NCBI GenBank assembly: GCA_938017575.1
Contig: CALIJC010000009.1
Span: 1 to 62,989, forward strand
DNA length: 62,989 nt
Reading direction: 5' to 3'
From: an uncultured Patescibacteria group bacterium
GTDB lineage: Bacteria; Patescibacteriota; JACMRA01
Shown here: positions 19,601-54,593 of the stretch, piece after piece
Layout: each line of letters begins with the position of its first letter
Numbering within the stretch: position 1 is the stretch's first letter
Notes under the pieces: generated by a model
Databases searched by the model: none
Told to the model about the DNA's origin: nothing
Seen by the model: only the letters and a program-made list of their open reading frames with translations
Position numbers and translations under genes: made by a program

Positions 19601-19626
19601 AAAAGCCCCCTGCAAAAAAACAGGGG
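19598..19626. terminator. Hairpin between convergent rel and pgi, with a T-tract only on the minus strand
   Basis: cccctg (19607-19612) pairs with cagggg (19621-19626). The minus strand reads cccctgtttttttgcagggggctttttt. Confidence 0.6.
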
Positions 19627-19769
19627 AGAGATGTTGGAGAAAACCTACGTATTGAAAGTATAGATACGTAGAATTGTAATCAGGCAGTTAATCCAAGCGA
19701 AAATGAAGCGAAAGAATATACCGACCTTCTAAAGAATAATATTCCATATTTTTTAGGTTTTGTCAAGTA

Positions 19770-33393: not shown

Positions 33394-34080
33394 TTAACTA
33401 GACTGCTCTCTCTTTTTTTTGATAAAACTAGGAATTAGTGCGATTAATCCAAGTAATACAAAACTAAAAATCAGCGAAGGAGATAATACATCTCCAATAC
33501 TGGAAATTTTACTGATTTCTGTCCCGGCGTTTACATATGCAAATGATCCAGGAATTATTCCAACAGCTGTTGTCCAGAAAAATGTTCGTAAATTAACTCG
33601 AGATAAACCTGCTAAAATATTAATCAAAAAGAAAGGAAAAATAGGGAGTAGGCGCAGAGTCAGTAAATAGCTAACTTGGTTTTCATCAATTTTCTTGTTA
33701 AATCCTTCCAGCTGTTTACCAAATTTCTTTTCTAGCGAGTCTCTAAACAAAAATCTAGTAAATATAGCTGTTAAAGTCGCTCCAACACTAGCTCCAATTA
33801 AAACATAGACAACACCGAGGAGACCAAATATTAACCCTCCTGATAAAGTCAAAACCGTCGCCCCAGGGACTGAAAAAGCAACAGAAATAATGTAAACAGC
33901 AATATATCCCAGAACAAACAAGATGTAATTATTATCCCGGAGATCAAATAGGTATTCTTGATTGTCTTTGAGGTTCTCTAGAGTAAGCAGGCCGAACCAG
34001 CCCTGCGAATAAGCCACAGCAATTAAGGCGATTATTACTGCTAAAATGATAAATTTCTTGTATTTGTTAATTATTGACAT
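33394..34080 (-). CDS. TVP38/TMEM64 (DedA-related) family membrane protein
   Basis: Multi-TM, 228 aa, with the SVPGATVLTLSGGLIFG and LRLLPIFPFFLINILAG pattern typical of the family. Confidence 0.75.
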   Translation of the reverse strand: MSIINKYKKFIILAVIIALIAVAYSQGWFGLLTLENLKDNQEYLFDLRDNNYILFVLGYIAVYIISVAFSVPGATVLTLSGGLIFGLLGVVYVLIGASVGATLTAIFTRFLFRDSLEKKFGKQLEGFNKKIDENQVSYLLTLRLLPIFPFFLINILAGLSRVNLRTFFWTTAVGIIPGSFAYVNAGTEISKISSIGDVLSPSLIFSFVLLGLIALIPSFIKKKREQSS

Positions 34081-34110
34081 AATGGTTTTTTAAACGTAAT
34101 ATATACATGA

Positions 34111-34139
34111 ATATTACAACCCAAATTGCATAAGGTCAA
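34111..34139 (-). promoter_or_regulatory. Promoter TTGACC-N17-TAATAT
   Basis: The reverse complement reads TTGACC ttatgcaatttgggttg TAATAT. Confidence 0.6.
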
Positions 34140-34174
34140 CATAAATATTATTTTTTATTACCAAACAATTAACC

Positions 34175-34918
34175 ATGGAGTATAAACTCAGAAATATAGT
34201 CACAAATTTCAAACTCAAGTTAGTCACCAAAGTCCTATTGGTCTGTTTTTGGATAGCCTTTTTTGGTCTGTTTGTAGTGGGCTTAATTAGCTGTGGTAGA
34301 GTAATTTTGATGGAGAACCCAGATATCGCCGCGATTAGTTTTACACGTGAAACTCTCTACCAAACAATCAAAAAAACTCAGGAGTTAGTTAGTTCATGGG
34401 GTGTTGCAGCACCAATTTCATTTCTATTTCTATATCTCCTTCGCCCTTTGTTTCTGGTCCCAGGCAGTATCATGGCAGCATTGTCAGGAGCATTTTTCGG
34501 TCCAATCCAAGGTGCTATGCTAACCATGTTAGGTGAGAACATTAGTGCCAACACAGCCTTTTTTACAGCTAGGTATTTTGGCGGCAAGAAAAAAATAATG
34601 GAAAAAACCAAAATAACCAGTAAATTAAATAAAAAACTAGAAGCTGATGGGTTGTTTTATGTGCTACTGCTAAGATTTCTGTGGCTCCCGTTTGATTTAG
34701 TGAATTACACGTGCGGTTTATCCAAAGTGAAATGGAAAAACTATGCTCTAGGAACTTTCTTCGGTATTATACCAGGGATGCTAACCTTTTTATTTCTTGG
34801 AGATACTATAGGGGGTAATAACTCCTCAATTTGGTTAGGTGTCATCTTTGGATTACTCACGACAACTATAGGGTATTTGATGCATCACAGTAAAAAAGGT
34901 CAAGTAGTTGATCTATAA
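34175..34918 (+). CDS. TVP38/TMEM64 (DedA-related) family membrane protein
   Basis: LVPGSIMAALSGAFFG and LLRFLWLPFDLVNYTCG. Divergent from the 33394..34080 paralogue. Confidence 0.75.
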   Translation: MEYKLRNIVTNFKLKLVTKVLLVCFWIAFFGLFVVGLISCGRVILMENPDIAAISFTRETLYQTIKKTQELVSSWGVAAPISFLFLYLLRPLFLVPGSIMAALSGAFFGPIQGAMLTMLGENISANTAFFTARYFGGKKKIMEKTKITSKLNKKLEADGLFYVLLLRFLWLPFDLVNYTCGLSKVKWKNYALGTFFGIIPGMLTFLFLGDTIGGNNSSIWLGVIFGLLTTTIGYLMHHSKKGQVVDL

Positions 34919-34977
34919 AAATATGACCAAAGTCGTAACAACAATGGTCATTATAATACCTCCCAAAGTTTGTCGAT

Positions 34978-35619
34978 TTAATTAAACGTATATATAAACT
35001 TGAAAGAAGTGATACTTTCTATTGGGTTAATGTATTGATATATTTTTGTAAAAAATTCAATTAGATTTAATTGAAGTTTAACTTCACAAAAAATAGTACC
35101 TTGGATTAAAAGCTGCTCATCATCAACCGGCTCACAACATGACACATTAGCAAGGCCAAAGTCGGTACATACCCCAGCTATATCTAATAAAATAGAACTG
35201 TTATCTTTATAACCTAACTCTACTTCATATACGATAGGCGCATATATATTAGGGTCTCGTTTTTTCAAAGCCGGCAAATTAAAAGAGGATTGAACATAAT
35301 TTTCAATAGACATTTGATCAATTGGGACACCAATATCAAAAGGTCTAACATACTCTAATAAATTTACAAAAGGTATCTCTAGCTCGGTTAATAATTCACC
35401 AATAGCCATTTGGTTGCAGACTGGGTCTAGTCCTTTTGAAGTAAATATAAAATCGTATGAATCACGAACTCTAATCAGAGATTGTAAATCAATATTTCTT
35501 TGTTGTATTTTAGAAACTAAACCAATTAGACCATCTAAATTCTCAGGTGTTTGTAATACAAAATAATTCTCCTTTGTAATAAATCTATATCCTGAAGCTG
35601 TATTTATAGAAGAAACCAT
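34978..35619 (-). CDS. Hypothetical cytosolic protein (possibly tandem ACT-like folds)
   Basis: ATG at 35619 preceded by ggaggg. The segments YFVLQTPENLDGLIGLVSKIQQRNIDLQSL and ILLDIAGVCTDFGLANVS look like ACT-type beta-alpha-beta units. This is a weak inference. Confidence 0.5.
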   Translation of the reverse strand: MVSSINTASGYRFITKENYFVLQTPENLDGLIGLVSKIQQRNIDLQSLIRVRDSYDFIFTSKGLDPVCNQMAIGELLTELEIPFVNLLEYVRPFDIGVPIDQMSIENYVQSSFNLPALKKRDPNIYAPIVYEVELGYKDNSSILLDIAGVCTDFGLANVSCCEPVDDEQLLIQGTIFCEVKLQLNLIEFFTKIYQYINPIESITSFKFIYTFN

Positions 35620-35712
35620 GACAACAACCCTCCAAGTCAAATAAAAACAAAGTCCTAAGCAGACGATTATGTGTAAATCAGTCTTTAGTCAAGAGTTGGT
35701 ATGAGAAAATTC

Positions 35713-35741
35713 TTTACAAGACCCTAATCATATGCTATAGT
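35713..35741 (+). promoter_or_regulatory. Promoter TTTACA-N17-TATAGT on the + strand, between two minus-strand genes
   Basis: TTTACA at 35713-35718 and TATAGT at 35736-35741. Confidence 0.55.
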
Positions 35742-35747
35742 AACCAG

Positions 35748-35878
35748 GCAACAACCGTTGAGTTTAGTCGACTCAATCAAAGTTGTGATTTGAATCTGGT
35801 ATCGCTTGTCCATAAATCATACTTTTGTATGGTTTTGGTAAGCAAACACTTCTACTTCCCCAGGGAGGTAGTTTTTTT
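35748..35878 (+). ncRNA. Candidate small RNA of about 130 nt, class unknown
   Basis: Bounded by the promoter at 35713-35741 and a + strand intrinsic terminator at 35852-35878. Internal hairpins: ttgagt/actcaa (35758-35776) and catac/gtatg (35818-35831). The only ORF, 17 codons, runs through the terminator and has no SD. Confidence 0.45.
35852..35878 (+). terminator. Strong + strand rho-independent terminator
   Basis: ctacttcc ccag ggaggtag followed by ttttttt. The reverse orientation has no T-tract, so it does not serve the DUF2207 gene. Confidence 0.75.
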
Positions 35879-35900
35879 GTAGTTAATCAATCTTCAAGGT

Positions 35901-37454
35901 TTACCAGCTTCCGCCGCCTCCTGAGAAACCTCCGCCTCCTCCAGAGTATCCACCACCTCCAGAAGAACTGCTTGGTGGGGTGTAGAATCTGGCAGAATTT
36001 AGATTAGTGGCTAGGAGTCCTGAATTATTCACTTGGTTGTTTTTAGGTAGAATTTTGCCAAAGTATTTATTAAACCCGGCGAGCATCCCGAAACTAGCCG
36101 CGTAGGGAACATTTTTCAAATAATACTGCACACCGTCACGAGGGTTGTTGCTGAAATCTAGCTTATCTTTGAGAACATAATCCAAAAAATACCGATATTC
36201 TTTGATGTGAATTTTGTCCATAATACCTTGCTTGTTCAGATTTCCCCACTTGCGAACAATCACTAATAGAAATGGCAAAAAGAAGAAAATATTAACCATT
36301 CCAAAGCCTATCCAGCTATCTCCCAGCAAAAGGGTTTCTTGGAATACATTAAATAAAATAATTCCGCCAATTACCAATATAAGTGAGATTCCCAGCCACA
36401 CTCCAAAACTAGCCGCTGGTGAAAAAGGTTTTTGGGAGTATTTATCCTGAATTGTTTTATAGACATGGCTGTGTAGTTTCTCGCTGTGCTGACCAGGGTT
36501 GAGTTTGGAGGATAGTAGTCCTTTTTTAATTCCTTTGGATACCATCAAATCAATTGATTTATTAAAAATGCTAGGAAGCAAGCCTGTTGGTAGTTTTTTC
36601 TTTTTTGTTATTTCCATTTTAGGTTTCTTTTGGGAATTATCAGGTTTTATAGAAATATATTTGTTATGGTTTAACCACAGTAGATAGGAAACCAATGTTT
36701 TTTTCAAATCCAGCGAGCCCTCGGATAAAATAAACTGAGATTGCCATGGGTGTAGTCCCTTGGGTGGTTCATATCTAGTACCGTCCTTGGTAATTTTTGG
36801 TAGCTTTGGATCTCTTGCTAGTATAAACCAAAGCAGGTAACTGATTATTGTAATGCTGGTGAAGCTAAATATATATAGTCTATTTAAATTAAAGAATTTG
36901 CCAAATTGACTAATTTTTTCACCCCCAGGGTTAATTGTTTCAGAAACTTTGATTCCTTGGCAGGTTAGATCTCCTGAACAGACTGGTTGACCATTCAATC
37001 TAACTTCTTTCAATGGGTCTAGCCAGTCACGAAGGTAAACAGGTGAGATTTTATAATCAGGATTTATTTGGGTTTCTAATTGAAAATTATATTCATAAGT
37101 TTCAGGTGCTAGAAAGGTATTTTTTTCACCAATGCGAAATCTAAACTGGTCTCTTTCTTTGATAATGGAATATGGCTCCGAGACTGGTTCAGGATTAGTC
37201 AAACTAGATTTAGTAATAGAATTTACTTTGTAATCAAGCCAAACCCCATCAGAAAAAGTAGGAAGACTTAGGAAAATTCCTCTATTTTGGTTAGTTGGAA
37301 ATGTGTGAGAAATTGTATAGTCCAAAATAAGTTTGTCGTCTTCTTGGGTAGTGTTTATTTCTATTAAATTAGTCTGGATAAACTGGGCCTGAGCTGGTAG
37401 ATTAATCAAAAATAGTGAGAAAGATATTATTATCAGAAATAATTTTCGAAACAT
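35901..37454 (-). CDS. DUF2207-family membrane protein
   Basis: Signal peptide, large extracytoplasmic N-domain, several TM helices and the family-typical Gly-rich tail SSSGGGGYSGGGGGFSGGGGSW. Confidence 0.8.
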   Translation of the reverse strand: MFRKLFLIIISFSLFLINLPAQAQFIQTNLIEINTTQEDDKLILDYTISHTFPTNQNRGIFLSLPTFSDGVWLDYKVNSITKSSLTNPEPVSEPYSIIKERDQFRFRIGEKNTFLAPETYEYNFQLETQINPDYKISPVYLRDWLDPLKEVRLNGQPVCSGDLTCQGIKVSETINPGGEKISQFGKFFNLNRLYIFSFTSITIISYLLWFILARDPKLPKITKDGTRYEPPKGLHPWQSQFILSEGSLDLKKTLVSYLLWLNHNKYISIKPDNSQKKPKMEITKKKKLPTGLLPSIFNKSIDLMVSKGIKKGLLSSKLNPGQHSEKLHSHVYKTIQDKYSQKPFSPAASFGVWLGISLILVIGGIILFNVFQETLLLGDSWIGFGMVNIFFFLPFLLVIVRKWGNLNKQGIMDKIHIKEYRYFLDYVLKDKLDFSNNPRDGVQYYLKNVPYAASFGMLAGFNKYFGKILPKNNQVNNSGLLATNLNSARFYTPPSSSSGGGGYSGGGGGFSGGGGSW

Positions 37455-54361: not shown

Positions 54362-54593
54362 TTGTACTCAGAACAATAGATTTTTATGTTAAAACCTTCG
54401 CAAAGGTTAATTAATTTGGAGAGGTGCTAACAAACAAAAATTTCAGCTTGTCATTTTGACAGGTTCATATTTGTTTTATATAGCATTTATATCCTCATTA
54501 TTTCTGATTTCAATAATTAATAGATATTTTTTAAACTCATTTGCTTTCGCTCAAAGGCAAAATAAATCCTCATTTCCAACTCAATAAACAATT

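Follow-up and report, generated by a model that had tools for sequence, protein, structure and literature searches.

The interval 35713–35878 of the window, which is the whole stretch of 62,989 nt that was analysed, carries a promoter, two hairpins and an intrinsic terminator on its + strand (Table 1). This arrangement is best explained by a small non-coding RNA gene of about 130 nt, independent and specific to this species, and we hold this explanation with moderate confidence. A + strand transcript as such, either this small RNA or the functionless by-product considered below, probably exists. The earlier note had proposed a candidate sRNA transcribed from the spacer between two minus-strand genes. 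All of the elements of that unit were located, and its anatomy holds. Calibration over the whole genome makes an independent + strand unit the likeliest reading of the candidate. The comparison with Rfam by cmscan assigned it to no family.

To our knowledge, regulatory RNAs have hardly been charted in Patescibacteria/CPR bacteria, which have genomes of about 1 Mb, few transcription factors and reduced cells of the epibiont type. At present the unit is one more computational sRNA candidate, an entry in a list for metatranscriptomes. If it is validated, a chaperone-independent sRNA beside an ORFan, in an insertion specific to one strain, would add a little to what is known of accessory-gene regulation in reduced cells.

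The window is contig C9 of an assembly (G000) of 1.04 Mb in 78 contigs, with a GC content of 33% and an estimated completeness of 78%. For the calibration of promoters and terminators, genes were called crudely (985 ORFs, 87% coding) and terminators were scanned genome-wide.

Table 1. Location of the unit, its parts, its neighbours and similar units of the same genome. Positions refer to the window unless a contig is named.
Feature	Position	Strand	Description
-35 hexamer	35713-35718	+	TTTACA
Extended -10	35733-35741	+	TGcTATAGT; TG 35733-35734, TATAGT 35736-35741
Predicted transcript	35746-35878	+	about 131-133 nt; predicted start at purine 35746-35748, 3' end in the U-tract
Hairpin 1 (H1)	35748-35786	+	outer 5-bp stem 35748-35752/35782-35786; inner 8-bp stem 35757-35764/35770-35777
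Linker	35787-35803	+	GAUUUGAAUCUGGUAUC, 17 nt; unpaired in MFE and centroid structures
Hairpin 2 (H2)	35804-35843	+	17 bp with two 1-nt bulges
Intrinsic terminator	35852-35878	+	stem CTACTTCC/GGAGGTAG 35852-35871, loop CCAG, T7 35872-35878
213-aa ORFan gene, divergent neighbour	34978-35619	-	GGAGGG Shine-Dalgarno 8 nt before ATG
Likely promoter of the 213-aa gene	35664-35692	-	predicted; TTGACT-N17-TAATCG or N15-CATAAT
DUF2207 membrane protein gene, convergent neighbour	35901-37454	-	PF20990, 2e-14
Lineage-specific block	34081-35900		about 1.8 kb; VTT paralogue (+), ORFan (-), RNA unit (+)
Sister orphan unit	G000:C25:9954-10131	-	promoter-to-terminator, no ORF of at least 80 aa
Sister orphan units, two in tandem	G000:C27:15009-15322	+	promoter-to-terminator, no ORF of at least 80 aa
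Sister orphan unit	54362-54465	+	promoter-to-terminator, no ORF of at least 80 aa
Sister orphan unit	19606-19737	-	promoter-to-terminator, no ORF of at least 80 aa

Promoter of the unit

The sequence TTTACA-N17-TATAGT, which had been reported 110 nt upstream of a terminator, is present. It is accompanied by the TG of an extended -10 box, and the distance between the end of the -10 box and the terminator stem is exactly 110 nt. With its spacer of 17 nt, the promoter scores 10/12 against the consensus. The promoter class was then counted over the genome. TTTACA-N17 followed by a -10 box with at least 5/6 matches was found at 15 intergenic and 8 coding sites, which corresponds to a 12-fold intergenic enrichment per nucleotide, and 10 of the 15 intergenic sites lie at most 150 nt upstream of a gene. 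The hexamer TATAGT is 8-fold commoner in intergenic DNA. Among the -35 variants, TTTACA ranks third in frequency. At a score of at least 10/12, intergenic DNA has 1.23 sites per kb and coding DNA 0.31. When the extended TG is included, the densities are 0.22 and 0.03 per kb, respectively. Of the terminators with coding DNA upstream, about 6% have such a promoter by chance at an upstream distance of 30–260 nt.

On the other hand, a generic scan at 9/12 showed no enrichment, with 16 sites against 14.4 in shuffled sequences. Therefore, the promoter alone is weak evidence, and it is the combination of elements that counts. The same result is in favour of a different explanation, in which there is no independent transcript at all. 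The promoter would be a chance occurrence in DNA of 33% GC, and the hairpins would belong to the 3'-UTR or spacer of a DUF2207(-ORFan) mRNA or would be neutral leftovers of the DNA insertion. We consider this rather doubtful. The 8- to 12-fold intergenic enrichment of the promoter class argues against a chance occurrence, and further evidence on both sides comes from the hairpins, the terminator and the conservation of the interval.

Nearly all stable-RNA genes of the genome have a perfect TTGACA, from which the TTTACA of the unit differs. As judged from its sequence, the unit appears to have a good promoter, yet one outside the stable-RNA class, which counts against the small RNA gene.

Secondary structure

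Two hairpins had been claimed inside the interval, and both of them (H1 and H2) were recovered by RNAfold. The fold of 35746–35880 consists of three helices, which are H1, H2 and the terminator, with a minimum free energy of -41.1 kcal/mol. Its z-score is -3.87, and none of 200 shuffled sequences folds equally well. Compared with 6514 intergenic windows of 135 nt from the same genome (mean -21.7, sd 7.5 kcal/mol), the fold is in the top 1.4%. Its stability is on par with that of intergenic windows containing tRNAs or RNase P RNA. With a GC content of 0.38, the predicted transcript is above the mean of the intergenic DNA (0.29).

The structure is strand-specific. The reverse complement of the 135-nt fold reaches -30.5 kcal/mol, and the values of the single hairpins on the + and - strands are -11.0 and -8.3 kcal/mol for H1, -16.5 and -9.1 kcal/mol for H2, and -10.6 and -5.5 kcal/mol for the terminator hairpin, respectively. 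The - strand of the 260-nt region has a z-score of only -0.81. All three hairpins are stronger on the + strand because 6 of the 38 pairs are G·U, which become C·A mismatches on the - strand. These values argue against the explanation without an independent transcript, by which the hairpins would be a part of the minus-strand mRNA.

Terminator

The 8-bp stem followed by TTTTTTT, as described in the earlier note, was identified. The stem has four G-C pairs, and the element has all that defines a canonical intrinsic terminator: a stem of 5 bp or more that contains G+C, a short loop, and a U-tract directly 3' of the hairpin. Its free energy on the + strand equals the median of the 370 terminators of the genome. 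A total of 235 of the 370 terminators directly follow a gene on the same strand, and their median distance from it is 28 nt. Therefore, intrinsic termination is the norm in this genome and is directional.

It had also been claimed that the terminator has no T-tract in the opposite orientation and thus cannot terminate the neighbouring DUF2207 gene. The first part is correct. On the - strand the hairpin is followed by AAGTGTTTGCTT, and its stem has a C·A mismatch. The second part was worded too strongly. The stop codon of DUF2207 and the hairpin are 30 nt apart, a distance close to the genome median, and the hairpin could still stabilise or weakly end the DUF2207 mRNA.

This typical terminator position is in line with the explanation that the hairpins belong to the DUF2207 mRNA, and so is the frequency of read-through. 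Of the 558 tandem gene pairs, 454 are without a terminator, which indicates that operon read-through is common. However, only the + side has the U7 tract, and other terminators of this kind belong to real RNA genes. In nine of the 558 tandem pairs, the only terminator near the stop codon of the upstream gene is on the opposite strand. Three of these nine end the RNase P RNA (C43), tRNA-Ser (C48) and another tRNA (C72), the present unit is a fourth, and the other five are unassigned. Therefore, orphan 'wrong-strand' terminators mark RNA genes in this genome and are a good predictor of them.

Neighbouring genes

The unit had been described as divergent from the promoter of the 34978–35619 gene. 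Prediction from the letters gave such a back-to-back arrangement, in which about 20 bp separate the -35 boxes of the two promoters. The predicted promoter of the 213-aa gene is below the threshold of the promoter scan, and it resembles the tRNA promoters of the genome with their strong -35 and weak -10 boxes. The 213-aa protein has no match in Pfam, NCBIfam, PADLOC or PHROG, and no homologue was found among 5.8e9 or 1.8e9 proteins in two large protein searches. Its AF2 model is poor (pLDDT 45). The ORFan is considered a real gene because of its GGAGGG Shine-Dalgarno sequence and its native codon usage, which is at the 73rd percentile of genes. A 13-nt inverted repeat with 92% complementarity connects 35248–35260 inside the ORFan with 35716–35728 in the spacer of the + strand promoter; it is probably there by chance.

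On the other side, the TAA stop codon of the DUF2207 gene starts at 35901, 22 nt past the U-tract, and the gene has no canonical terminator of its own. Its orthologues in relatives share at most 53% identity. The two nearest relatives have the DUF2207 gene in two or three ORFs, broken up by frameshifts or an internal stop (L061:2186-3844; G001:C43, L036), which reflects either a pseudogene or an assembly error.

The position of the unit between these two genes allows for a functionless by-product or insulator. The AT-rich promoter region of the ORFan might fire both ways, and the terminator would stop antisense transcription from entering DUF2207. Conversely, the convergent unit might block the read-through of DUF2207 into the ORFan and uncouple both genes. 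We regard this explanation as unlikely. The promoters are indeed back to back, and the terminator is placed immediately before the 3' end of a DUF2207 gene without a canonical one. However, a terminator alone would suffice for these purposes. Two hairpins biased to the + strand, and a fold that few intergenic windows of the genome equal, would be left unexplained. The comparison with convergent or bidirectional terminator insulators points both ways. The hairpin is 22–30 nt from the stop codon of the convergent gene as it is in those elements, whereas the unit differs from a classical bidirectional terminator in its one-sided T-tract and in a stem that is weakened on the other strand.

Coding potential and known RNA families

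No credible ORF had been noticed in the interval, and the analysis agrees. The longest frames have 29–30 aa, lack a Shine-Dalgarno sequence and overlap the terminator. There is no start codon at the predicted transcript start, and translation from the first TTG would yield 11 aa. In some Gracilibacteria TGA encodes glycine, and a relative of the same genus is labelled 'Candidatus Gracilibacteria bacterium'. Genetic code 25 was rejected for the window, where the long genes (1250, 858, 715, 700 and 696 aa) are without an in-frame TGA and TGA ends ORFs. Table 11 applies, and 35620–35900 is therefore truly non-coding. A small-protein gene or a type I toxin-antitoxin system was also rejected, as there is neither an ORF with a ribosome-binding site nor a leaderless start.

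The scan of the window with Rfam 15 (4227 models) at the gathering thresholds found tRNA-Phe only. A permissive scan (E≤10) of 35500–36000 returned noise only, with E-values of 3.6–7.5. In the whole assembly, no covariance-model match was obtained for SRP RNA (RF00169, RF01854) or for 6S RNA (RF00013). Since both RNAs are undetected across the assembly, a 'missing' RNA might hide in the unit. The unit would then be a diverged form of a known RNA (SRP RNA, 6S RNA, a riboswitch or a toxin-antitoxin antitoxin RNA), or it would encode a small or leaderless peptide. All of this is extremely unlikely. Besides the lack of an Rfam match beyond noise at E≤10, the unit has three separate hairpins, where 4.5S or 6S RNA would form one long hairpin. 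Specifically, SRP RNA was rejected because the unit does not form a single long hairpin with the domain IV motif and no Ffh partner is present; neither Ffh nor FtsY was detected in the genome. 6S RNA was rejected because the three hairpins do not make a rod of about 180 nt with a central bubble. A leader or riboswitch was discarded because nothing to be regulated follows downstream on the + strand. The unit is not a housekeeping RNA because it is absent from the nearest relatives. As for a peptide, no ORF exceeds 30 aa, has a ribosome-binding site or has a start codon at the predicted transcript start, and the ORFs overlap the terminator.

Conservation and the lineage-specific block

The unit is located in a stretch, 34081–35900, that is considered a lineage-specific block because G001 and GCA_012031015.1 (L061), the two nearest relatives, lack it. 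The gene order in these two genomes is tuf <-> DUF2207 -> VTT, and their VTT gene is the orthologue of 33394–34080 of the window, with 65–68% amino acid identity. The corresponding spacer is unrelated, about 150–185 nt long, unstructured (z -0.8 and -0.2) and without a terminator. At the flanks of the block, no convincing repeats or compositional break were seen. The neighbours downstream of DUF2207 differ in every relative, and no relative that keeps both flanking genes was found. A homologue of the VTT paralogue with 66% identity is located on a contig of 1,695 nt (ENA ERZ22067504). No genome closer than the known relatives was found in the class.

The sequence of the unit was searched for by several routes. 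A BLAST search of 40 relatives with the spacer returned only chance matches of 15–30 nt, one of them inside a large repeat-protein gene on contig C6. A covariance model built from the single sequence was run over 26 genomes of the family, and its matches were all chance ones in coding sequence (the best in G024:C60 and G000:C67). Phages and plasmids contained no match to the unit. A 21-mer match in one metagenome contig was rejected, as the contig is unrelated and the match is due to chance. By exact-protein look-ups, other copies were found in two assemblies only. Both are of the same strain and are 100% identical over 3.7–4.6 kb. Therefore, no covariation or purifying-selection signal can be obtained from them.

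A sequence unique to one strain speaks for the explanation without an independent transcript, and the lack of conservation, together with the lack of an identifiable target, speaks for the by-product or insulator. Confinement to one species or strain is likewise a property of lineage-specific orphan sRNA genes. Such genes have a sigma-70 promoter and a Rho-independent terminator. The unit is like them in being free-standing, intergenic and about 130 nt long, and in having stem-loops, a single-stranded stretch and a U-tail. It differs from them in that it is predicted from sequence only and in that no Hfq or ProQ and no target or homologue were found.

Proposed mechanism and comparison with known systems

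For the preferred reading, an independent and species-specific small RNA gene, the following mechanism is proposed. The putative sigma-70-type promoter TTTACA-N17-TGcTATAGT would start transcription near 35746–35748. The transcript is predicted to form two stable hairpins parted by the 17-nt single-stranded stretch. It would end at the 8-bp stem and U7 terminator, 22 nt short of the convergent DUF2207 stop. The RNA may act as a base-pairing riboregulator, independent of a chaperone, through its unpaired 5' end or the linker. In the modelled fold, the linker is a possible seed region. Two features of Hfq- or ProQ-type sRNAs, a U7 tail and an A/U-rich single-stranded linker beside a hairpin, were found in the unit. 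However, Hfq (PF17209) and ProQ (PF04352) were not found in the assembly, which is 78% complete, and any base-pairing would therefore be chaperone-independent.

The divergent ORFan is a possible target. The segment CAACAACC (35749–35756) of the sRNA could pair with GGUUGUUG (35629–35622), which is between the Shine-Dalgarno sequence and the AUG of the ORFan mRNA. The complementarity covers 8 nt. In RNAduplex, the duplex with the translation-initiation region of the ORFan ranked 47 of 966 and was not significant. A blastn-short search found no extended complementarity to the unit in the genome.

The arrangement resembles the divergent protein-sRNA pairs OxyR/OxyS, GcvA/GcvB and SgrR/SgrS. As in those pairs, the promoters of the protein gene and the sRNA are back to back, and the sRNA has its own terminator. 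The difference is in the neighbour, which here is a 213-aa ORFan with no recognised DNA-binding or other domain. A regulatory link between the unit and this neighbour is thus pure speculation. In a bolder version, the RNA and the divergent ORFan would form a recently acquired, self-contained RNA-protein module, which was inserted as a block of about 1.8 kb and in which the RNA controls or partners the protein. Such a module might be, for example, a toxin-antitoxin, defence or host-interaction system of a new kind. We think this version very unlikely.

The genome contains roughly 15 orphan promoter-to-terminator units in total. Some of them are listed in Table 1 as sister units. Those on contigs C25 and C27 belong to no Rfam family, and the two in the window (54362–54465 and 19606–19737) were covered by the window-wide scan, which found tRNA-Phe only. 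The C25, C27 and 19606–19737 units share the architecture, the lack of an Rfam family and the lack of detectable relatives with 35713–35878, but they have no sequence or structure similarity to it.

Other observations in the genome and phylum

The search for SRP components was extended to a phylum sample composed of G000 and 40 relatives, 15 genomes of which are at least 90% complete. The Ffh M domain (PF02978) and the SRP54 GTPase domain (PF00448, covering Ffh and FtsY) were found in none of the 40–41 sampled genomes, and neither were the small (RF00169) and large (RF01854) SRP RNAs. A tblastn search of G000, which contains no N runs, with E. coli Ffh gave no match, and the TrmD control gave 3e-31. 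SecY was found in 41 of 41 sampled genomes. Some CPR genomes are believed to be annotated with ffh and ftsY. If the absence of SRP is real, co-translational membrane targeting would work without SRP in this group. Among the papers searched, none was relevant to sRNAs or SRP in CPR bacteria, and none dealt with the absence of SRP in the phylum.

The length of SecY divides the sample. Its frames are about 570–600 aa long in all 25 genomes of the family of the window (f1) and in the one genome of the same order (for example, G000:C60:11280-12758). Across the remaining 15 families sampled from the phylum, they are about 425–475 aa long. The difference points to about 150 aa added to SecY in this lineage, by extension or insertion.

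Two paralogous intergenic elements were observed at G000:C27:1887-2145 (+) and G000:C54:620-928 (-). Each of them has two copies of GTAAATCGATATATTGATATC, which are about 65–70 nt apart. The second copy is extended to a perfect palindrome of 28 nt and forms a terminator-like hairpin. These elements could be iterons, operators or a small mobile module.

At G000:C72:15232-15306 (+), ARAGORN reported a tRNA of undetermined identity with the four-base anticodon 'ttta' and an enlarged anticodon loop. This tRNA has a terminator and a TTGACA-N18 promoter of its own. Genome-wide, nearly all tRNA promoters have a perfect TTGACA as the -35 box, a spacer of 17 nt and a poorly conserved -10 box. Therefore, promoter recognition in this genome seems to be dominated by the -35 box.
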